Assembly: GCA_964403235.1 (NCBI GenBank)
Contig: CAYOGX010000001.1
Span: 1-24,191, forward strand
Source of the DNA: an uncultured Planctomycetales bacterium
GTDB lineage: Bacteria; Planctomycetota; Phycisphaerae; UBA1845; JAFGLZ01
Length of the DNA: 24,191 bases
Reading direction: 5' to 3'
The first letter of the stretch is position 1, and every line of letters starts with the position of its first letter. Position numbers and translations under genes: made by a program. Of the stretch, positions 2-23,732 are shown in pieces. The notes under the pieces were generated by a model. That model saw only the letters and a program-made list of their open reading frames with translations, had not been told where the DNA came from and did not search any database.

Positions 2-802
2 TCGCTCGCCGGCGGCGAGCCGTTGCTCCGCGACGACATCGTCGAGGTGGCCCGGTTGGTCTCGCGGCAGCACGTCTGCTTCATGACCACCAACGGGTGG
101 GACCTGACGCCGGACCTGGCCCGCGACCTGTTCGCGGCGAAGCTGTGGGGCGTGTCGGTCAGTCTGGACTATGCCGACCCGGCCAGGCACGACCGCAGGC
201 GTGGGCAGCCCGGGGCGTTCGACCGGGCCGTTCGCGCGTTGGACTATTTCTCCGCCGCCCGCCGTTGGCCCTGGCAGCGGGTCAACGTGATGACGGTCCT
301 GATGCACGACAACCTCGACCAGATCGAGCCGCTGCTCGAGCTGGCGGCCGACCATGGCGCGTACCTGATGGTCCAACCGTACTGCCATCGCAAGACGGGC
401 AGCCACCGGTTCGTCCATTCGAACGGGCAGGTGTCGCCCTATCTGCTCGAGCTCAAGCGGCGGCACCGGAACCTGCTGAGCCACCCGATCTTCCTGAGCA
501 AGTTCGACCAGGCCCTCGACGGCGGCGTGCCGGGCTGCATGGCCGGGCGGGCGTTCTTCAACATCGACTCGACGGGCGACATCGCCATCTGCGTCGAGCA
601 GCGGGATCGCCCGGTCGCCAACCTCTATCGAGACCACGAACAGGTCATCGTCCGCCGCCTCAATGCCGGGGCGCGGGGCAACACGTGCACGGATTGCTGG
701 TACAACTGCCGCGGCGAGGTCGAGATGCTGATGCGTCCGTGGAGCCTGGCCCTGTCGATGCCCGAGCTCCTGTTCGACCGCGGGCGACTGCCCACGCGCT
801 AA
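2..802 (+). CDS. Radical SAM / SPASM-domain protein, 5'-truncated by the window edge
   Basis: The frame is open from base 2 (SLAGGEPLLRDD), giving the GGEP SAM-binding motif, then TTNG, VSVSLD, a SPASM-like GCMAG...NIDSTGDIAIC and C-terminal CTDCWYNCRGE. The CxxxCxxC motif would lie upstream of the window. Confidence 0.9.
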   Translation, partial: SLAGGEPLLRDDIVEVARLVSRQHVCFMTTNGWDLTPDLARDLFAAKLWGVSVSLDYADPARHDRRRGQPGAFDRAVRALDYFSAARRWPWQRVNVMTVLMHDNLDQIEPLLELAADHGAYLMVQPYCHRKTGSHRFVHSNGQVSPYLLELKRRHRNLLSHPIFLSKFDQALDGGVPGCMAGRAFFNIDSTGDIAICVEQRDRPVANLYRDHEQVIVRRLNAGARGNTCTDCWYNCRGEVEMLMRPWSLALSMPELLFDRGRLPTR

Positions 803-931: not shown

Positions 932-3900
932 ATGACACACACATCTGTGTTTGCATTGGTGCCCGGCATGATCGTGGTCCTGCTGGCCGGAGGTGCTGCG
1001 CCGGTGAGGGACAGGCCGCTCGAGCTCACCGGAGACGAATCGCCCGAACGTGCGATCTGTATCTATTGTCCGCAAGATGCGTCGTTCGCAGAAGCCCTGG
1101 CTGCGCGGGAGGTCCGCCGATACATCTACTTGCGGACCGGACACCTGTTGCCCATCCGGCCGGTCACGAAACTGCCCGACGGCGAAGATGCCATCGTCGT
1201 GGCGCGCCAGGATCGTCCGATCCATCGCGCGGTGTTCAGTGGCTACCGCAGTGTTCTCCCGCCGCTCAGGGCACAGGCGTTTTACCTAACGACCATCGCG
1301 AGGGCGGGACGTCGTGTGGTCGTGATTGCCGGCGGCGACGACGCGGGGACGCTGTATGGCGCGTACCGATTCGCCGAGCACCTCGGCGTGCGGTTCTACC
1401 TGCACGGCGACGTGATCCCGGACGATCGGATTGCGTTGAAGCTGCCCGACCTGGACGAGGTCGGCCGGCCGCTGTTTGGGCTGCGAGGCATCCAGCCGTT
1501 CCACGATTTCCCTGAGGGGCCCGACTGGTGGGATCTGGACGACTACAAGGCCATCATCTCGCAGTTGCCCAAGCTCGGCATGAACTTCATCGGGCTGCAC
1601 ACCTACCCGGAGGACCGACCGGCGGCCGAGCCGACGGTGTGGATCGGCCTGGCCAGGGACATCGGCGCGGACGGTCGGGTGAACTTCAGCTACCCGTCGA
1701 TCTACTACAACACGGCGTTGCCCGTCGGGTGGGGGTTCGCCGCCAAGAAGACAAGCGACTACGTGTTCGGTGCGGGGAACCTGTTCGCGAGCGACGCACA
1801 CAGCTCGCAGATCATGGCAGGCGTCGCGCCGAGGCCCGACAGGGCCGAACACTGCAACGAGGTGTTCAACCGCGCCGGCGCGATGCTCCGCGAGGCCTTC
1901 AGACACGCACACGCGCTGGGCGTGAAGACCTGCGTCGGCACCGAGACACCGCTGGTCGTGCCGAAGAGGGTGGCCGCCCGGCTGAAGAAGCTGGGGAAGG
2001 ACCCCAAGGCACCGGCCGTGTTGCAGGAGCTGTATGACGGGATGTTCCGCCGGATCGCTAAGGCCTACCCCATCGACTACTACTGGTTCTGGACGCCAGA
2101 GGGCTGGACCTGGCAGGGCGCCAAACCCGAGCAGATCGAAGCGACCATCAAGGACATCAAGACCGCCTACGCTGCCGCCAAGAACTGCAACGCGCCGTTT
2201 CAACTGGGCACGTGCGGGTGGGTCCTAGGCCCGCCGAGCAACCGTGCCCTGTTCGACGAAGTCCTGCCCAAGGACATGTTCACGAGTTGCATCAGCCGTC
2301 AGGTGGGCCACGCGCCGATCGAGTCGGGGTTCGCGCGGGTCTCCGGTCGGGGGAAATGGGCCATCCCCTGGCTCGAGGACGACCCGGCGATGACGTCGCC
2401 GCAGTTGTGGGTCGGACGGATGCGGACCGACGCCGCCGACGCGCTGCGATACGGGTGCACCGGGCTGATGGGCATCCACTGGCGGACGCGGATCCTCGCG
2501 CCGAACGTCTCGGCGTTGGCCAGGGCGGCCTGGGACCAGACGGGCTGGGGCGAGCGGGCACGGACGGCTGGACCCGTGGGCGGCAAGATCGCCACGTTCC
2601 CGGATCGCGACTTCGCCAATACCCGGGACGACACGCTGTACCAGACCGTCCGCTACGACGTGAACGCCTATCGGCTGGCCGTGCCGAACGGTGTCTATTT
2701 CGTGATGCTGCGGTTCTGCGAGCCGGCCTACAACGAAAAGGGCAAGCGCGTCTTCGGCGTCCGGCTCCAGGGCAGGCGGGTGATCGACAAGCTCGACATC
2801 TTCGCGACCGTCGGCCAGAACCGGGCGCTCGACTATCCGTTTGTCGGGGTCGAGGTGGCCAACGGCTGGCTCGACATCGAGTTCGAGCGTCACGCCGAGC
2901 TGCCCTGCATCGCTGCGATCGACATCGAGGGCGTCGGGTTCGTCCAGAAGATCAACTGCGGCGGCCCGGCCTACAAGGACTATGACCCCGATCCGCCCGT
3001 GTTGTCGCGGTATCCGCCGACGGACGATTTCTATCTCGACTGGGCGACGCATCTGTTCGGTGCCGCCGCGGCTGCCGACGTCGCCAAGGTCTTCGCGAAG
3101 ATGGACTGCGAACTGCCGCGCCCGTCGGACTGGGTGAACGGGCCAGGTGGGCTCAAGCCCGACAGTCAGTCATGGGAGACCGTCGGCAAGGCGTACGCGT
3201 TCGTGGATGAGTTGGCGGCGCTCCGGCCGCGGGTCAAGGGCGCGGGCAACCGGGCGCGGTTCGATTACTGGTTGGACAGTTTCCGTTACCTGCGTGCGTC
3301 CGGTCGGGTCAGGTGCACGTGGGCCCGATACAACGCCGCGATCAAGAAGGTCCAGGCCGAGAAGGACCCCAAGGCCCAACGGGACCTGGCCACCCAGACC
3401 GCCCTGCCGATCCGCAAGCAGTTGGTTCAGGACGTGCGCGAGGTCTATCGGCACCTGCTGGCGACGGTCAACACGACCGGCACGATGGGGACGGTGGCCA
3501 ACTGGGAGCAGCACATCCTGCCCGGCCTGTTGATCAAGCCGGGTGACGAGCTGTCGAAGATCCTCGGCAAACCGTTGCCGCCCGACGCCCAGCCCGACCA
3601 GCGCTACGACGGCCCGATGCGCGTCATCGTGTCGACCGTGCGTAGTAGCGTGACGGCCGGCGAATCGCTGACGCTGAAGGTGATCGTCCTGAGCCAGCAG
3701 CCGCCTTCGCATGCGGCGTTGTATTGGCGCACTGTCGACGACAAGGGCACCGGCGAGTTCGCGAAGATCCCCCTGACACACGTCGCGCGCGGCGTCTACT
3801 CGGTCACGTTTCCGCCGGACGGTGCGAAGGGCATGATGCTGGAGTATTATGTGAAGGTCATGACGGGAGATGGCAAAGCGGTCTGTTTCCCCGCCACCGC

Positions 3901-11686: not shown

Positions 11687-13123
11687 CTACATCGCGTCCA
11701 ACAGGGCCTCGAACCGGGCGGCGACGTTCCGCAGGTCGCCGGTCCGTGCGTTGGGTGTGGTCAGCACCATTGGACCACCGAAGCTGGCGCAGCGGAGGAT
11801 GGAGATCATCTCCTTGACCTCGGCGTTGCCGTGGGCCAGCGGCTGTACGACACCGTCGTTGCAGGCGTCCTCGACGTCGAGCTGGTCGACGAATCGCCGG
11901 AGCTTCTGTTTGTAGCTGTAAAGGAACGGTGCCTCGCCGGCCCGCGCGAAGTTCGCGCCGTTGAACGTGAACCCCACGTCGGCGCCGGTCTCACGCAGCG
12001 CCAGCAGCATCCGCGACGCCATCAGGCTGCCCTGGACGCCGTTGTACAGGGAAAGCCTCAACCCGCGCTCTGACGCGAGGGTCGCGTGCTCCTGTGCTTC
12101 GGCCGACAGGGGCAGCACGATCCGGTCGACCTGGTTGTCGACGGCAGCGTCCATGAATCGGGCCACCGACTCGGGAACCGACGCGCACCGCAATGCGGTC
12201 ACGTGGCATTCGCCCTTGCGGAGGGCCTGCACCGTCGTCCGCAGGTCGTCGGCGGCGAGCCTGTGGACGGGTCGGCCCTGGACGAGGTCCAGCTCGATGT
12301 GGCCGACGCCGCTTGCCCGGAGGTTCTCAATCATCTCCGGCACGTACCGGCCCGCCAGGCCGCTGGCCGCGACTACCGTGAACGCCTCGCGGCCGAATCG
12401 CTCGCGCCGGAGCGCCGCGCGCTGGGCGACGCAATCGGCGCAGTTGGGATTCTCGCACAACACGAAGGCGGGATCGGCGCGGCCCGCCTCCAGACAGACG
12501 TCGATCAGGTCTTGGCTCTTCATCAGCCGGACAACCGAGCTGCCGATCCGCCCAACCCGCAGCACGCCCTTCTCGCGCAACAGCGGGTCCAGGCCCACGA
12601 AGTCCCGGTGCGGGCCGGGGAACCGTCGGATCGTCCGGGTGACCTCGCCCTCGTCGGTCATGAAGGTCTTGGTCCGGTCGGTCAAGTAGGGCGGTTGGAG
12701 CATTTCCTCCGCCGTGTGTAGCGTCGTGCTGCGGTCCTGGTCCACGCCGAGTAGACAGACGTACCCGCCGCGTTCGGCGATGCGCATGTAGGGCGTGTCT
12801 TCGGCGTGTGCGGTTTCGGCCTTCCAGTGGTCTTTGCAGAGCGCCTCGGCGGCCGCGCCGATGGCGGCCACGCTGGCCAGAGGATGGACGCTCCGCACCG
12901 ACCGCGGGTCGTCGCGGACCGCCTCCGTGATGACGCCCAGCGCGCCGAACGTCGGCACGACCAACGTTCCCCGTTCGCCCAGCACGGACAGGAACGCGTC
13001 GACGACGGTCCGCGCGCCGCCCTCGACGAAGCCAAGACTGGACAGCGAGCTGTGGAGCAACACGACGTCGCCTTCGCGGAGCCCCAGGTCGCGCAGTCCT
13101 CGTTCGATCTGATCCCGCGTCAT
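11687..13123 (-). CDS. AAC(3)/Antibiotic_NAT-family N-acetyltransferase fused to a C-terminal xylose-isomerase-like (AP endonuclease 2) TIM barrel, 478 aa
   Basis: ATG at 13123 with GAGGG upstream. GDVVLLHSSLSSLG, GTLVVPTF, RSVHPLASVAAIG and LLGVDQDRSTTLHTAEE are AAC(3) motifs. After residue ~243 come GVGHIELD...HVTAL...VGFTFNGANF...PLAHGNAEVKEMISIL, which fit an AP_endonuc_2-type barrel. Confidence 0.85.
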   Translation of the reverse strand: MTRDQIERGLRDLGLREGDVVLLHSSLSSLGFVEGGARTVVDAFLSVLGERGTLVVPTFGALGVITEAVRDDPRSVRSVHPLASVAAIGAAAEALCKDHWKAETAHAEDTPYMRIAERGGYVCLLGVDQDRSTTLHTAEEMLQPPYLTDRTKTFMTDEGEVTRTIRRFPGPHRDFVGLDPLLREKGVLRVGRIGSSVVRLMKSQDLIDVCLEAGRADPAFVLCENPNCADCVAQRAALRRERFGREAFTVVAASGLAGRYVPEMIENLRASGVGHIELDLVQGRPVHRLAADDLRTTVQALRKGECHVTALRCASVPESVARFMDAAVDNQVDRIVLPLSAEAQEHATLASERGLRLSLYNGVQGSLMASRMLLALRETGADVGFTFNGANFARAGEAPFLYSYKQKLRRFVDQLDVEDACNDGVVQPLAHGNAEVKEMISILRCASFGGPMVLTTPNARTGDLRNVAARFEALLDAM

Positions 13124-13216
13124 TCGCGGCCCTCGGTGAAGACGTGGCCCTTGGGCCTCGTCGACGGACCACAAGTAACATCCGCAACGCGTGTTCGTCA
13201 ACCGCTTGGGTGTCCT

Positions 13217-13233
13217 TCGGCATCGCACTTGCT
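13217..13233 (+). promoter_or_regulatory. Candidate sigma54 (-24/-12) promoter upstream of the GT87-like gene
   Basis: TCGGCATCGCACTTGCT has GG-N10-GC spacing with a perfect TTGCT -12 element. Confidence 0.35.
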
Positions 13234-13393
13234 CCGTGGTTTGTTGAAAGCTATAACCCCGTGCAAGCAGAGGCAGGCGGTGCCTGCCGCGTCCTACCCG
13301 AAGGGCCGGCCAACCGTGCCGGCAGACCAGTTGCCGGGTCGGTGCGTTGGCGTGTCACGGAATTCGACGGCTGCAATGGGCGATCGCGAAGAC

Positions 13394-14719
13394 ATGTCGC
13401 AAAAGGCGGTCGGCGAGAATCGCGCTTCGACGGGGCCATCGGGCCTCCCTCGTCAGCGTTGGATCAAGGTCGTCGTCGCGGTATCGCTCGTGGGCTTCTG
13501 CGCCGTGAACACCCGCAATTTCGTCAAGAAGGTGAACGCCGGGAAGTCCACGCTGAAGATCTGGTTGCCGTGTGCGGCCGAGATCGGGCGCGACGAGCTT
13601 CTGTACACCCACCACCGGAACTACATCTATCCGCCCTGGTACTTGGTCGTGATCCGCCCGTTGACGTACGTGTCGAGAACGGCGGCGGCCATCATCTGGC
13701 AGATGATGAAGTACGCGGCGGTGGGGGCGATCTTCTGGTTGGTTTGGGACCTGCTGTCGCGGGACGGGCCGCTGCCGACGTGGGCGAAGCTCGGTTCGGT
13801 CGTCATGAGCGCGCGGTTCATCCTCAACGATCTGGGGCACGGCAACGTCAACCTGTTTATCTGTCTGCTGGTGGTTTTGGCGGTGTGGCTGTTGGCGCGG
13901 GGGCGGTTGATTGCCTGTGGGGTTGCGGTGGCGGTAGCCGCGTGCATCAAGATCACGCCCGCCTTGTGGGCCGTGTACCTGTTGTACAAGCGGCAGTGGC
14001 GAGCGCTGGTGGGGGTCGTGATCGGTGTCGTGATCTGTCTGGAGCTCGTACCGCTCATGCTCCTGTCGCCGGCGATGAACCACGCGTTGCTGCGGCGCTG
14101 GTACGCGCACGTGATCACTCCTTACGTGTCGAAGGGACAGGTCTACTCGACCCGAATCAACCAGTCGATGGCGGGGGTGACGAATCGCCTGTTGGGTCGG
14201 AGCGAATGGGCGCCGCGCGACGAGCCGATCGCGCTGGTCGATCTGGACGATGAGACCCTCAAGTGGGTCCAGCGCGGGATTGGGTTCGCCGTGATCGCGA
14301 TGTTGGCGTGGTTCTGTCGAGGGGCATTGCCCGAGCCGGACCGGTTGGCGTTGGCGGTCGAGTGGTCGCTGGTGGCCGCAACGACGCTCGTCCTGTCGGG
14401 GTACACGTGGACGGGTCATTTCTGTCTGCTCATCCTCGCCCACGTGGCGGTGTTGGCGTATCTGGCGAGGCGTGGGGAGCAACGTATCGACCGGCAGGTC
14501 CTGGTCCTGACGATCATTGCCTTGGCGCTGTGCTCGTTGACCAGCGATCTGATCACGCCTGCGGGCCGGCGATGGGCGGCCGCGGTCGGTCTGATGCTCT
14601 ACGGTGTACTGGCGCTGGCGGCCGCGCTGGTGTTGATCCGCGAGCGCCGTCGTCCCTCGGCAGTGGCGCGTGACAGCACCCATTCGCGTTCGGGACGCGG
14701 GGGCTCGGAAGGGCGTTGA
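13394..14719 (+). CDS. Glycosyltransferase family 87 / DUF2029 multi-pass membrane protein; start could be 13376
   Basis: YIYPPWYLVVIRPL, GNVNLFICLLVVL, AACIKITPALW and NQSMAG motifs, with many hydrophobic helices. The ORF-track extension to 12806 overlaps the opposite-strand gene and is not credible. Confidence 0.85.
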   Translation: MSQKAVGENRASTGPSGLPRQRWIKVVVAVSLVGFCAVNTRNFVKKVNAGKSTLKIWLPCAAEIGRDELLYTHHRNYIYPPWYLVVIRPLTYVSRTAAAIIWQMMKYAAVGAIFWLVWDLLSRDGPLPTWAKLGSVVMSARFILNDLGHGNVNLFICLLVVLAVWLLARGRLIACGVAVAVAACIKITPALWAVYLLYKRQWRALVGVVIGVVICLELVPLMLLSPAMNHALLRRWYAHVITPYVSKGQVYSTRINQSMAGVTNRLLGRSEWAPRDEPIALVDLDDETLKWVQRGIGFAVIAMLAWFCRGALPEPDRLALAVEWSLVAATTLVLSGYTWTGHFCLLILAHVAVLAYLARRGEQRIDRQVLVLTIIALALCSLTSDLITPAGRRWAAAVGLMLYGVLALAAALVLIRERRRPSAVARDSTHSRSGRGGSEGR

Positions 14720-14726
14720 CGGCGGG

Positions 14727-15224
14727 CTACGTCGGCCTTCGGGGATCATGGTTGGCATGCTCGTCCAGCCACTCTTGTAGCATGTCGGCCTTGGCGGTCC
14801 TGCCGAGCCTGCGATAGGCCTGGCATTCGTATTCCAGCGACAGAACGGGGACGGCCAATCCATCGAGGTCGACGAAACGGCGGTGCTCGGACACGTCGAC
14901 GCGGTCTTCCCATTTCCCATCCGGGAGGCGTTTCTGAATCGCCCCCATGATTTCGACGCTCACGCCATCGATGCACAACTCGCCGAAATGGGAACGGATC
15001 GTCTCGGTGGACGAGAACTGGACCTTTCGAACGACGTGATCCGAGAAGCAGCGCTCGATCTCGTACGCGCCCGGTTCGTCGGTTTGGATGTCGATGTCAT
15101 GGACCGCCACTTCAACGCCCTGGAGCGCCTGGCCGAGGCTGCCAGTAACCGCCCAGGTCGTCTCAGTGCCGCTCAGGTGGGAACAGATGCATCCAACAAC
15201 GTCAATGAAGCGCGGGTCGATCAT
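14727..15224 (-). CDS. Small nucleotidyltransferase-superfamily protein (Pol-beta-like GS + DxD), 165 aa
   Basis: WAVTGSLGQALQG...HDIDIQTD (hG[GS] motif plus DxD) and a third acidic residue in VSVEIMG. The start is taken at MIDPRF. Confidence 0.75.
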   Translation of the reverse strand: MIDPRFIDVVGCICSHLSGTETTWAVTGSLGQALQGVEVAVHDIDIQTDEPGAYEIERCFSDHVVRKVQFSSTETIRSHFGELCIDGVSVEIMGAIQKRLPDGKWEDRVDVSEHRRFVDLDGLAVPVLSLEYECQAYRRLGRTAKADMLQEWLDEHANHDPRRPT

Positions 15225-15256
15225 CTCGATCCCCGACGACGGCACGACAGGCGGCG

Positions 15257-16264
15257 TCACTTGTCCGGGGCCGCGACGGGGGCGGGTCCGTCCGGGAAGT
15301 CGCGTCGCCATCGCTTGCGAAGCTCGTTGAGCGTTCCGGCGAACCAATAGATCTTTCCGCGGACGGCCCGCTTGGCGTTCGGCGGTATGGGCCCGACGTT
15401 TACGATGCTGTGCAGGCAGTCGGCCGGGTGATGGTCACTCACGTGGGACGTTCGCTGCCAGTAGATGCCGCAGACCCAGGTCCGCTCCCTGTTCGTTCGC
15501 GTGACCAGGCCGTTGTCGATCTGCTCGAGCATGCGGGCCTTGTAGGGTCCGACGGTGAGCATCGCTGCCAGGTCCCCACCGCTGCGCTCGGTGTCGACGC
15601 GGACGCCAAGGGGCGTCCGCGCGCCGACGGGCGATGACGTGGCCGGCAGGGCCTGCCACGTGCGTTTTCGAAGCACGTATGTGAGGCTCGTCTTGGCGGG
15701 CTTGTCCTTTTCGTGTCGCCGCCACAGATCGTATTCGCTGAAGGCGGGTGTCTGGGCGATGGTCCGCCGCCAGGCGGCGTTCGTCGTGCCGCTCATTCGG
15801 AAGCACTGCTGGATGCCGTAGTAAGCATTGAGCCCGGCCTGGTCGGTCTGAACGACGAGGAGCAGATCGATGCCGTCAGCCACGGGCGCCATGTAGAACG
15901 TCCATTGCTGCGGCACCCAGCCCTTGTCATCCACGCGAAGCTCGTTCTTCAGCACGCCCGGTCGCTTGCCGAAACGCCGCTCGAGCTCGGCCATCTCGGC
16001 GGGATCGATCCCTGCCCGCTCATTGTCGTCGGGCACCTGGCCGTGCACGATCGGCGTGTGTTCGTGGAATCGGTACCCGATCCGGTTGTCGGGATGGCGC
16101 CGGTTGGTGAACGTGGCGAAGCCGTTGCCCCTGGCGAGCTTGGCCATGATCGGTGAGTCAGCGGACATGTTGGCACCCGATGCCGATCCCCACGCGCACG
16201 TCGTCAGCAGCGCAACCAGCGGGACGGTGCGGTGGCGAAGGGGACGTTCATTGTGTTCGCCCAT
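15257..16264 (-). CDS. Uncharacterised exported protein, 335 aa
   Basis: GAGG RBS, signal-like RTVPLVALLTTCAWGSASGA, GC3-biased codons and a beta-rich composition. No family recognised with confidence. Confidence 0.7.
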   Translation of the reverse strand: MGEHNERPLRHRTVPLVALLTTCAWGSASGANMSADSPIMAKLARGNGFATFTNRRHPDNRIGYRFHEHTPIVHGQVPDDNERAGIDPAEMAELERRFGKRPGVLKNELRVDDKGWVPQQWTFYMAPVADGIDLLLVVQTDQAGLNAYYGIQQCFRMSGTTNAAWRRTIAQTPAFSEYDLWRRHEKDKPAKTSLTYVLRKRTWQALPATSSPVGARTPLGVRVDTERSGGDLAAMLTVGPYKARMLEQIDNGLVTRTNRERTWVCGIYWQRTSHVSDHHPADCLHSIVNVGPIPPNAKRAVRGKIYWFAGTLNELRKRWRRDFPDGPAPVAAPDK

Positions 16265-21081: not shown

Positions 21082-22185
21082 ATGCGATGGCAAGACGAGA
21101 TCAAAAACAGCATCACCACGCTCGATCAATTGAGCGAATACGCCAAGTTGCCCTTGGACGAGGACAAGCGCCTGCGACGGGTCGCCAAACGGCATCCGAT
21201 GGCCATGACCCGCTACTACGCGTCGCTGATCGACTGGACCGATCCGGACGACCCGATTCGTCGGATGGCCGTCCCATGCGTGGAGGAACTGAACGTCGCC
21301 GGGACGTACGACACGAGCGGCGAGGCGAGCAACACGAAGATGCCCGGCCTTCAGCACAAGTACGCGCAGACCGCGCTGATCCTCGCGACCAACCGATGCG
21401 CGATGTACTGCCGGCATTGCTTCAGGAAGCGATTGGTCGGCCTGACGAACGAGGAGATCCTGAGCCGGTTCGGTGAGGCGGTGGCGTATGTCAAGCGGCA
21501 CAACGAGATCAACAACGTGCTCATCAGCGGCGGTGATCCGCTCATCCTGCCGACCCGAGTGATTCGCGAGTTCCTCCGAAGGCTGTCGCCCATTGCCCAT
21601 CTGTGCTTCATCAGGCTGGGCAGCAGAACGCCCGTCACGTTCCCCCAGCGGATCTACGGCGACAGGGAGCTGCTGGCCGTGCTGAAGCGGTACTCCGCCG
21701 GTGACAAGCGGCTGTTCCTGGTCACACAGTTCAACCATCCCCGGGAGATCACCGAGCAGTCGACCAGGGCTGTCAGCCGGCTGATCGAGGCCGGCGTGGT
21801 CCTCAACAATCAGACCGTTCTGCTGAGCGGCGTGAACGACGATCCGGATACGCTGGCGGAATTGCAGAACAGACTGGTGGGCATCGGTGTCAATCCGTAC
21901 TACGTCTTCCAGTGCAGGCCCGTCAAGCGCGTGAAGCATTGCTACCAGGTGCCGTTCCGCCGTGGTTACGAGGCGGTGGAAAAGGCCAAGCGGCAGCTCA
22001 ACGGCCACAGCAAGCGGTTCCGCTATGCGATGTCGCACAAGACGGGCAAGATCGAGATCGTGGGGATCATGGGCAACGACATTTACCTCAAGTACTTCCA
22101 GGCCAAGAGCCCGAAGAACGTCGGCCGGTTTTTCAAGCGACGACTGACCGACAACGCGGCCTGGTTGGATGACTTGGGACCGTGA
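21082..22185 (+). CDS. KamA-family radical SAM, PLP-dependent aminomutase homologue (substrate probably not lysine)
   Basis: GGAGG RBS; GLQHKY, CAMYCRHCFRKR (CxxxCxxC), ISGGDPL, RLGSRTPVTFPQRI, TQFNHPRE, NQTVLL, PYYVFQC, and the PLP Lys in TGKIE. Confidence 0.9.
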   Translation: MRWQDEIKNSITTLDQLSEYAKLPLDEDKRLRRVAKRHPMAMTRYYASLIDWTDPDDPIRRMAVPCVEELNVAGTYDTSGEASNTKMPGLQHKYAQTALILATNRCAMYCRHCFRKRLVGLTNEEILSRFGEAVAYVKRHNEINNVLISGGDPLILPTRVIREFLRRLSPIAHLCFIRLGSRTPVTFPQRIYGDRELLAVLKRYSAGDKRLFLVTQFNHPREITEQSTRAVSRLIEAGVVLNNQTVLLSGVNDDPDTLAELQNRLVGIGVNPYYVFQCRPVKRVKHCYQVPFRRGYEAVEKAKRQLNGHSKRFRYAMSHKTGKIEIVGIMGNDIYLKYFQAKSPKNVGRFFKRRLTDNAAWLDDLGP

Positions 22186-22322: not shown

Positions 22323-22400
22323 GCCCGCCTGTTCGTACCACCTGACAGTCAAGTAGGGCCGGCTGTGCCGACCGCTTCCTGACAACGTAGGAGGTGTTTG

Positions 22401-23732
22401 ATGGAACTCGGTGTGCGGATCCGCCTGAGCGTGATGATGTTCCTGACGTACGTGATCTGGGGCGCGTGGCTGCCGCTCCTGCCGGTCTATCTGGGACACC
22501 CGGACATCGGATTCACGGGGGAGCAGATCGGCCTGGTCTTCGCGACCATGGCGATCGCGTCCGTCACGGCGATGCTGATCAGCGGGCAGATCGCGGACCG
22601 ATGGTTCTCGACGGAGCGATTCCTATGCGTCAGTAGCCTTCTCGGTGCGGCCGCACTCTATGTCGTTTCCTTGCAGACAAGCTTCTGGCCGTTCTTCATG
22701 GCCTTTCTGGTCTACGCCATCATCTACGTGCCCATCCTGTCCCTGACGAACGCGATCAGCTTCGCGCACATCCCGGATGCCCAGCGAGATTTCGGGGGCA
22801 TCCGCGTGTGGGGGACCCTCGGGTGGGTCGCCGCCAGTTGGCCTTTCCTTTTGATCTTGGGAGACAAGGCCACGGTGGGCGACCTCAGGTGGATGTTCTA
22901 CGTGTCGGCGGCGGTTTCGGTGGTCTTGGGCGTTTTCTCACTGACCCTGCCGCACACGCCGCCGAAGCGTGAAGCCCGCGAGCGGTTCGCCCCGCTGCGG
23001 GCCCTGTCCCTGCTCGGCAAGCCGGCGTTCTTGGTCCTGTTCTTGGTGGCCTTGAGTGATTCGATGGTTCAGTTCTGCTACTTCATCTGGACGGGGCTCT
23101 TTCTCGAGGCCCTGGAGGTACCGGCCAAGTACATCTCCGCGTGCATGAGCATCGGGCAGATCGCCGAAATCCTGACCATGTTCGCCCTGGGCTACTTCCT
23201 CAAGACCTTCGGCTGGCGGAAGGTGATGGCCATGGGGGTCTTCGCCCACACCTTGCGATTCGGCATCTACACGCTCAGCGCCGGCAAGCCGGAGTTGGCC
23301 TGGTTGGTGGTGGCCAGCAATGTCGTGCACGGTGCCGCCTATGCCTTCTTCTTCGCGGCCGTCTACATCTATGCAGACGAGCACGCGCCCAAGGACATTC
23401 GAGCCAGCGCCCAGATCCTGTTCAACCTGGTGATCCTTGGAGCGGGTCAACTTCTCGGCAGCTTGCTGTTCGGGAAGTTGGGCGACTACTACACCACCAC
23501 GACCACGCAGACCGTGGGCGAGGTCGTCACGCAGGTCAAGGTCTTGGACTATCGAAGTCTGTTCCTGATCCCAACCCTCTGGTCGCTGGTCACCGGGACA
23601 TTCCTGCTCATCGCGTTCTGGCCCGGCGAGAAGCCGCCGGCTGAGGAGAACGGCGACGTGCCGGATTCCGGCCTGGGCGAGGGCGAGGCCGAGGTCGAGC
23701 AGCGGCTTCGCGATCTGGGCTACGTCGAGTAG
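22401..23732 (+). CDS. MFS transporter, nucleoside:H+ symporter (NupG/XapB)-like, with an atypical C-terminal tail
   Basis: AGGAGGT RBS; LSVMMFLTYVIWGAW N-terminus, GQIADRWFSTER, FGGIRVWGTLGW, IGQIAEI and DIRASAQ; about 12 hydrophobic helices. Confidence 0.9.
   Translation: MELGVRIRLSVMMFLTYVIWGAWLPLLPVYLGHPDIGFTGEQIGLVFATMAIASVTAMLISGQIADRWFSTERFLCVSSLLGAAALYVVSLQTSFWPFFMAFLVYAIIYVPILSLTNAISFAHIPDAQRDFGGIRVWGTLGWVAASWPFLLILGDKATVGDLRWMFYVSAAVSVVLGVFSLTLPHTPPKREARERFAPLRALSLLGKPAFLVLFLVALSDSMVQFCYFIWTGLFLEALEVPAKYISACMSIGQIAEILTMFALGYFLKTFGWRKVMAMGVFAHTLRFGIYTLSAGKPELAWLVVASNVVHGAAYAFFFAAVYIYADEHAPKDIRASAQILFNLVILGAGQLLGSLLFGKLGDYYTTTTTQTVGEVVTQVKVLDYRSLFLIPTLWSLVTGTFLLIAFWPGEKPPAEENGDVPDSGLGEGEAEVEQRLRDLGYVE

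Follow-up and report, generated by a model that had tools for sequence, protein, structure and literature searches.

Why does a membrane transporter end in the same short peptide as a large group of predominantly cytoplasmic enzymes of the alkaline-phosphatase (AlkP) superfamily? The question is raised by a 24,191-nucleotide stretch of DNA from an uncultured Planctomycetales bacterium of the Phycisphaerae (assembly GCA_964403235.1, contig CAYOGX010000001.1, positions 1 to 24,191 of the forward strand; the whole stretch is referred to here as the window). It carries the gene for a 443-residue transporter of the major facilitator superfamily (MFS) that continues beyond its last transmembrane (TM) helix into an acidic linker and a terminal LGY-type motif. 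An original prediction, made from the letters of the DNA, had placed this motif at 23691-23732, and both the translation and the coordinates agree with it: the C-terminus reads ...LLIAFWPGEKPPAEENGDVPDSGLGEGEAEVEQRLRDLGYVE-TAG, residues E431-E443 (EVEQRLRDLGYVE) are encoded by 23691-23729, and position 23640 corresponds to A414. The reading that we favour, with a probability of roughly one half, is that this tail is a portable C-terminal docking peptide which on the transporter would share its partner with the tails of the AlkP-type enzymes; this reading draws on sequence comparison and on structural models.

The transporter and its conserved C-terminal tail

Judged by its sequence and model, the protein is a NupG/YegT-like 12-TM MFS transporter. 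The Pfam profile PF03825 (Nuc_H_symport) matches residues 4-407 (E=1.4e-115) with a score of 387 bits against a cut-off of 25.9, covering profile positions 2-396 of 400, which places the protein within this family. The NCBIfam nucleoside permease model TIGR00889 gives 266.5 bits against a cut-off of 446.1, and with a score below the cut-off the substrate of the transporter is not assignable by family. The closest sequences in the PDB, found with phmmer, are YegT (8zoj, 1e-58) and NupG (7dl9/7dla, ~1e-42). An AlphaFold2 model (ma995132e9f4b; single chain, 47-sequence alignment) has a mean predicted local distance difference test (pLDDT) score of 91, with an all-helical TM core to residue 405. 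A beta-hairpin in the TM11-TM12 loop, with strands E365-372 and E375-382, a poly-Thr run (YYTTTTTQTVGEVVTQVKVLDY) and pLDDT >90, is separate from the tail. The GC content at third codon positions is 0.87 in the transporter gene, and a scan for promoters and terminators around it gave nothing above shuffled sequences.

As the PF03825 match ends at residue 407, the transporter domain does not include the last ~36 residues. AlphaFold2 leaves this extension unpacked, as a free capped helix (residues 428-438, pLDDT ~67, with the final residues at low confidence) on a disordered linker of ~22 residues. The last ~16 residues would form a self-contained, capped amphipathic helix, in which V432, L436 and L439 make up a hydrophobic stripe that is followed by a Gly C-cap and Y-V-E-COOH. 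Across the carriers of this tail, pairs of Glu and Arg spaced i to i+4, the Gly C-cap and, in many of them, an S/T-x-x-E box may be read as helix capping. By homology with NupG and YegT and from the established topology of MFS proteins, the tail is predicted to face the cytoplasm. No other open reading frame (ORF) of the window, in six frames, has an LGY-type end. The string VPDSG is present in the linker at residues 420-424, and a VPDSG-CTERM sorting signal was considered and rejected: no TM segment follows the motif, there is no NCBIfam match, the residues that follow the string are acidic and helical, not hydrophobic, and VPDSG itself is not conserved, the homologues reading DSDSG, ADDSG or EPDSG at this position.

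The tail is strongly conserved within one group of transporters. All 13 of the closest homologue clusters (54-78% identity, 430-443 residues), which were drawn from independent NCBI, JGI, ENA and Logan assemblies, end VE[EQAR]RL[RK]DLGY[VI]E, so the absence of a tail from close MFS homologues, named beforehand as the sign of a one-off fusion or chimera, is not what is seen. The motif is absent from the other 107 of the best 120 homologue clusters, which stop shortly past TM12; the earlier view that NupG-like proteins do not in general have the tail is thereby upheld. In a neighbour-joining tree built from the TM core alone the 13 tailed clusters form an exclusive clade, consistent with a single acquisition of the tail. 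Mean column identity among them reaches 0.94 over the last 12 residues, compared with 0.72 in the TM core and 0.57 in the linker, and no other stretch of 12 residues in the transporter is as well conserved. E433, R435, L436, D438, L439, G440, Y441 and E443 are invariant. The linker carries indels and its sequences are lineage-specific.

Among five genes compared, the tail codons vary synonymously (CGG/CGC/AGG, CTT/CTC, GAT/GAC and GGC/GGT/GGG) and the DNA 3' of the genes is unrelated. Amino acids kept through synonymous changes indicate a constraint on the peptide and rule out an RNA or DNA element at this site. All tailed MFS genes inspected have TAG as their stop codon: the window gene, four homologous genes (L001 11303-11305, L003 11294-11296, L005 11312-11314 and L007 11297-11299) and five metagenome genes (L130, L131 and L134-L136), some of which encode the same protein. 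This stop codon is uniform despite scrambled synonymous sites and GC-rich genomes, and the stop of the tailed sulfatase-like genes that share the same 12-mer is TGA.

The tail on AlkP-superfamily enzymes and other carriers

Carriers were sought with a degenerate DNA pattern, back-translated from E-x-R-L-[RKQ..]-x-L-G-Y-[hydrophobic]-[D/E]-stop, in one genome per species (185,579 species, 596 Gb). At least 120 matches were obtained, against 2-17 expected by chance in the whole collection. Of the matches listed, 119 of 120 have a true stop codon after the motif and 105 close an ORF of at least 80 residues. When their last 25 residues are left off, 103 of these 105 ORFs fall into one BLAST single-linkage cluster, ten representatives of which match PF01663 (six) or PF00884 (four); by sequence, 103 of the 105 carriers of this length among the matches listed are thus members of the AlkP superfamily. 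Their hosts span Bacteria and Archaea and more than 15 phyla, including Halobacteria, Bathyarchaeia, Actinomycetota, Chloroflexota, Verrucomicrobiota, Planctomycetota, Myxococcota, Desulfobacteraceae, Acidobacteriota, Binatia, Poribacteria, Hydrogenedentota, Armatimonadota, Spirochaetaceae and Bipolaricaulaceae, among others. MFS transporters are rare carriers: none was found among the 120 genome matches listed.

The similarity of these tails extends beyond what the search imposed. Position -12, counted from the C-terminus, is V, I or L in 82 of 91 carriers among the matches listed, Ala is the commonest residue at -14, [YF][ST] occurs at -20/-19 and E or D at -17/-16, and the sequence upstream is acidic; none of these positions is forced by the pattern. 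The resulting consensus is [YF][ST]xEE..x[VIL]ExRL[RKQ]xLGY[LIVM][ED]-COOH, with a hydrophobic stripe at -12, -8 and -5 and, in many carriers, an S/T-x-x-E box before the helix. The transporter follows the search pattern (E433-Q-R-L-R-D-L-G-Y-V-E443-TAG) and fits the unforced positions as well, with V432 at -12, A430 at -14 and an acidic lead-in (EENGD...GEGE). The last residue is E or D in 91 of 91 carriers, as the search pattern required; some tails from a relaxed search of the fetched loci end LGYL, LGYM or LGYVQ, from which it follows that a terminal acid is common and not obligatory.

A signal-like hydrophobic segment precedes the first beta-strand in only 2 of 72 carriers, so that most appear to be cytoplasmic and to share a compartment with the C-terminus of the transporter. 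The statement that the ExRLxxLGY ending is common on AlkP proteins, sulfatases and some sulfotransferases stands for proteins of the PF01663 and PF00884 types and finds no support for sulfotransferases, none being seen in 131 sampled matches. The label "sulfatase" likewise does not fit: the formylglycine motif C/S-x-P-x-R is present in none of the 19 tailed PF00884 proteins (among them L015, L056, L072, L073, L115 and L127), and about half of the 19 have a WT(L/G)xS-type segment at the equivalent position. These carriers are probably soluble hydrolases or phosphotransferases with a putative Thr nucleophile rather than sulfatases.

A second scan, of metagenomes, used the string V-E-[EQ]-R-L-R-D-L-G-Y-[VI]-E-stop and gave 11 matches: five MFS transporters, four sulfatase-like proteins (507 residues), one PF01663-like protein and one truncated fragment. 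One of them (L130) encodes the window's own transporter. Identical 12-mers (VEERLRDLGYVE/IE) therefore occur on MFS and AlkP-type carriers. The transporter itself matches MFS families only and has no AlkP catalytic domain (Pfam, NCBIfam); what the two groups have in common is the tail and not the enzyme. For the PF01663 carrier L113, from Phycisphaerae, 120 homologue clusters were retrieved (~562 residues, 68-86% identity), and 118 of these end LE[KQE]RLS[ED]LGYLE, so the lineage that has the tailed transporter has tailed enzymes too. A comparison of accessions found no assembly with both a tailed MFS gene and a tailed PF01663 gene. The one hint from within a single assembly is an orphan remnant of 24 codons (L014 1189-1263, +; ...EQREIEQRLKNLGYME-stop), which is intergenic, without a start or, in any frame, an upstream ORF, and comes from the same assembly as the tailed MFS homologue P0006 (GCA_964622545.1); it looks like the fossil of a deleted carrier gene.

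The AlphaFold2 model of one PF01663 carrier, P0132 of the ~562-residue Phycisphaerae family (mean pLDDT 83), has an NPP-like fold, with Xanthomonas NPP (2gsn) as a Foldseek match at 8e-17 and 14% identity. The body ends at about residue 530 and is followed by a low-confidence stretch and then by a helix at residues 545-557 (pLDDT 50-56), which in this single-chain model is not docked in cis on the PF01663 body. The transporter model shows the same arrangement.

Nine small tailed ORFs are found among the matches listed, eight of ~63-70 residues and one of ~105, ending for example in ...AGYSSVDEFVMHIIERELAKFQDATDEQAIEERLRGLGYIE. By eye they are ribbon-helix-helix-like, and no family model matches them. 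They stand in a recurrent cassette (Table 1), in which two PF01663 genes, both long and tail-less, are followed by a small tailed protein and a multi-TM protein of ~280-300 residues. The PF01663 paralogues (for example at L026 2366-4771 and L101 3438-5453) stop directly past the catalytic domain; the membrane protein ends KPF[VL]KVQ[FL] and has no family match, and we found no description of the cassette in the family libraries or literature searched. A tail-less PF01663 pair next to a small tailed protein ties the function of the tail to AlkP-fold enzymes in trans. The relaxed search of the fetched loci also showed a second tailed PF00884 gene adjoining the first in L048, L050, L069 and L071. 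In L089, from Bathyarchaeia, a 268-residue protein of the PF01507 PAPS-reductase family ends QKLRSLGYM-stop (2122-2928, -), and its divergent neighbour is a small tailed protein (2997-3212, +). A Halomonas M78 peptidase that matched in the relaxed search is probably a chance hit. Listing the carrier families by motif thus gives the AlkP superfamily as the dominant one among the matches listed, together with the MFS clade, the small proteins and the PF01507 protein. The portability that had been proposed for the tail is supported, since by sequence it is found on no fewer than four unrelated folds (PF01663/PF00884, the MFS clade, the ~65-residue proteins and the one PF01507 protein).

No Pfam or NCBIfam model was found for the tail, for the small tailed proteins or for the cassette membrane protein. 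A search of the PDB with a profile of the tail returned chance-level matches only, and literature searches on the LGY motif or tail returned nothing relevant, mostly casein peptides. As had been anticipated, the tail appears to be undescribed in the curated families, the PDB and the literature searched; docking peptides on flexible linkers are as such known. In a word-indexed protein search a 42-residue alignment of the tail gave no match and missed even its own protein, which scores 82 bits by hmmsearch, showing that a word index is unsuited to short motifs. Against 1.84 billion representatives the tail profile gave two matches at E<=1e-3, the transporter itself and P0121, matches to the tail alone scoring ~35-40 bits, too low for 1.8 billion targets. 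In P0121 the similarity lies in four internal AVKxLQQRLKDLGYY helices, within repeats identified by eye as PG_binding_1-like. PF01471 (PG_binding_1) has no match in the transporter at E<=0.01, and only ~11 residues resemble its first helix. When plasmids were searched with the consensus tail by tblastn, only three Haladaptatus genes annotated as 'alkaline phosphatase family protein' were found, with uninformative neighbours.

Genomic context

All ORFs of the 120 loci listed from the genome scan were clustered. The neighbours of tailed AlkP genes that recur across phyla are GT4 glycosyltransferases (39 loci), NAD-dependent sugar-nucleotide epimerases/dehydratases (15 loci) and GT2 glycosyltransferases, and in such company the tailed AlkP-type enzymes appear to be part of glycan or envelope biosynthesis. 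At L121 487-6931 (+), from Haloferax massiliensis, a GT1 glycosyltransferase, a GtrA/DUF2079 membrane protein, a tailed sulfatase-like protein and an inositol-monophosphatase-family protein, possibly CysQ-like, follow one another, an order that may point to sulfation or phosphorylation as one step of a glycosylation pathway. In H. volcanii, Agl7 contributes to the sulfation of DolP-hexose (PMC3892788), and this protein was considered as a possible carrier that has already been studied. There are no recognisable agl genes in the 8-kb L121 block.

Within the window the transporter gene has a radical-SAM gene and a gene for a truncated Omp85 as neighbours. Radical-SAM genes lie at 2-802 (+) and 21082-22185 (+), the latter ~215 bp upstream of the MFS gene. 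Elsewhere an ORF for a GT87-family membrane glycosyltransferase is flanked by ORFs matching Antibiotic_NAT (PF02522, aminoglycoside 3-N-acetyltransferase) and Aminoglyc_resit (PF10706, aminoglycoside-2''-adenylyltransferase); the three ORFs occupy 11687-13228 (-), 12806-14719 (+) and 14727-15347 (-). In its 5' part the GT87 ORF overlaps that for NAT, which lies on the opposite strand, and the start assignments are tentative.

Table 1. Coordinates of the transporter gene, its parts and the cassettes with small tailed proteins.
Feature	Location	Strand	Basis or host
MFS transporter gene, TAG included	window 22401-23732	+	translation; ATG at 22401
Shine-Dalgarno-like GGAGG, 5 nt 5' of ATG	window 22390-22394	+	read from sequence
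Transporter core, residues 1-405, 12 TM helices (TM12 = 384-405)	window 22401-23615	+	AlphaFold2, Pfam
Beta-hairpin insert in TM11-TM12 loop, residues 365-382, TTTTTQTVGEVVTQVKVL	window 23493-23546	+	DSSP on AlphaFold2 model
Acidic, Gly/Pro-rich variable linker, residues 406-427, FWPGEKPPAEENGDVPDSGLGE	window 23616-23681	+	pLDDT 50-64, no secondary structure
Conserved C-terminal tail, residues 428-443, GEAEVEQRLRDLGYVE	window 23682-23729	+	predicted amphipathic helix 428-438, then L-G-Y-V-E cap
TAG stop	window 23730-23732	+	read from sequence
Cassette	L026 297-5913	+	Phycisphaerae/Planctomycetales group
Cassette	L101 1414-6569	+	Phycisphaerae/Planctomycetales group
Cassette	L100 1-3406	+	Phycisphaerae/Planctomycetales group
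Cassette	L105 3201-7999	-	Deltaproteobacteria MAG
Cassette, partial	L076 55-4086	-	Bryobacterales (Acidobacteriota)
Cassette, partial	L094 7126-8000	-	Bryobacterales (Acidobacteriota)
Cassette variant: small tailed, PF01663, small tailed	L058 2255-4031	-	Bipolaricaulaceae (Bipolaricaulota)

A proposed docking peptide and its alternatives

The motif, its conservation, its range of carriers, its portability and its architecture can be read directly from the comparisons above, and it is from these that we infer binding of a protein by the tail, the likely partner and a functional coupling. A variable linker that ends in a short free helix resembles, in the models and by analogy, the architecture typical of docking peptides. 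On the transporter such a peptide would tether the MFS protein to whatever is bound by the tails of the cytoplasmic AlkP-type enzymes, this partner being either the AlkP-fold enzymes themselves or a third protein shared by all carriers. An AlkP-fold enzyme could be the most economical receptor, because it is the only protein seen with the tail in every lineage, in cis or in adjacent genes; a third-party reader is equally open. In either case this would physically link transport to phosphoryl transfer or hydrolysis of the AlkP type on the inner side of the membrane.

Several observations weigh against this proposal. The original prediction had looked to AlkP or sulfatase proteins encoded alongside the transporter as partners, and there is no AlkP or sulfatase gene in the 24-kb window; nor is there an AlkP-type gene near the MFS gene in four homologous loci, between which no synteny was seen, and the three sulfatases that adjoin the MFS homologue P0010 (L001) are tail-less. 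Lipoprotein-type signal peptides are seen on a few of the PF00884 carriers (L021, L056); these would put the tails outside the cytoplasm and are hard to fit to one cytoplasmic partner. The tail of P0132 does not dock in cis in the model, which argues weakly against the AlkP domain as receptor. Finally, RLxxLGY is an ordinary structural helix in PG_binding_1-like repeats, and part of the similarity between tails could reflect a sequence that is generally favourable for capping a helix.

Taken to its limit, this last point would make the tails unrelated helix caps, RLxxLGY being a stable helix end that arose independently on the transporter. The four copies of the same core in P0121 fit such convergence. 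The similarity between carriers nevertheless covers 14-20 residues and takes in positions -12 and -14, which the search did not force, and a lead-in that is acidic or of the S/T-x-x-E type; the motif closes the protein in every carrier, no segment of the MFS protein is more conserved, and an identical 12-mer occurs on sulfatase-like proteins, so that we regard convergence as very improbable. An assembly chimera or a mis-called gene end can be set aside as negligible, since the same in-frame architecture, free of frameshifts, recurs in the independent NCBI, JGI, ENA and Logan assemblies; a chimera is ruled out by these tailed homologues together with their lineage-specific linkers. The long flexible linker would permit the tail to fold back on its own body, in the MFS vestibule or the enzyme active site, as an intramolecular autoinhibitor, and a Tyr near acidic residues could conceivably mimic an aryl-phosphate or aryl-sulfate substrate. 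One peptide would, however, have to fit folds as unrelated as an MFS transporter, the AlkP fold and a ~65-residue protein, and AlphaFold2 leaves the tail undocked on either body (pLDDT ~67 on the transporter and 50-56 on the PF01663 carrier), which makes autoinhibition quite improbable.

Two further explanations keep the tail as an intermolecular or cellular signal and dispense with an AlkP-linked receptor. Helices of different carriers might bundle with one another, so that tailed proteins co-assemble by themselves. This would suit the single hydrophobic stripe flanked by complementary E/R/D charges, the helix left free by AlphaFold2 and the occurrence of at least two tailed proteins side by side in L048, L050, L058, L069, L071 and L089. 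A stable bundle would nevertheless call for a helix longer than ~11 residues, the invariant end, Gly-Tyr-hydrophobic-acid-COOH, suggests a terminus that is read by a pocket, and contact between tails cannot join the tail-less PF01663 proteins of the cassette to the small tailed protein beside them; such self-association is in our judgement unlikely. The tail might otherwise direct turnover, quality control or localisation, as a degron or anti-degron for an AAA+ protease or as a polar or membrane-domain targeting signal with no AlkP link. A motif at the extreme C-terminus with a conserved last residue is what degrons look like, and its presence in both Archaea and Bacteria would fit a universal reader. 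Many protein families would then be expected to carry it, yet 103 of the 105 carriers of at least 80 residues among the matches listed belong to one superfamily, and the small tailed proteins adjoin that same AlkP superfamily; this too seems rather unlikely.

The docking reading can be widened, more tentatively and with considerable doubt, to a prokaryote-wide tag that would assemble cytoplasmic AlkP-fold enzymes, small adaptors and, in Phycisphaerae, an MFS transporter at the membrane, in complexes acting on intermediates of envelope glycans or glycolipids, either to modify or to move them, with the AlkP-fold enzymes acting on phosphoryl or sulfuryl groups. A tail of 16-20 residues is in any case conserved from haloarchaea to Planctomycetota on a large set of AlkP-type enzymes that are cytoplasmic and functionally uncharacterised. 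As an interaction tag it would offer a peptide handle for pulldown experiments on what these enzymes do and with whom, predict a transporter-enzyme metabolon and give annotators a simple sequence signature; as no more than a stable helix cap, it would be a curiosity of convergent or transferred sequence.

Among known systems the nearest likeness is with the tails of the PF01663 and PF00884 proteins themselves, which have the same peptide at the extreme C-terminus, an acidic disordered lead-in and a predicted location in the cytoplasm; the carrier here differs in being a 12-TM transporter and not an AlkP-fold enzyme. The first helix of PG_binding_1 (PF01471) shares the core L-x-x-R-L-x-x-L-G-Y, but as an internal, repeated element of a three-helix domain, the rest of which is absent from the transporter. 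The PEP-CTERM, LPXTG and VPDSG-CTERM signals are similarly short C-terminal signatures on otherwise unrelated proteins; they contain a TM helix as well as a basic cluster and function outside the cytoplasm, whereas the LGY tail has no TM segment. Short C-terminal docking peptides organise bacterial machines such as those of SSB and FtsZ, and to our knowledge few such peptides have been described. In the SSB tip (DDDIPF) and the FtsZ C-terminal peptide, as here, a variable disordered linker leads to a short conserved C-terminal peptide. The sequences are unrelated, each of those peptides is found on one family whereas the LGY tail is found on several, and partner binding has been shown for them, whereas the LGY tail is known from sequence and models. 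The EEVD motif of Hsp70 and Hsp90, which is bound by the TPR carboxylate clamp, is also a short acidic C-terminal motif with a terminal acid on different families, and by analogy the free carboxylate of the LGY tail may be part of its recognition; EEVD differs in being eukaryotic, non-helical and of another sequence, and some LGY tails lack the terminal acid. Were the wider proposal true, the tail would belong to an undescribed tag-and-receptor system with a generality like that of the SSB tip or of EEVD and TPR.

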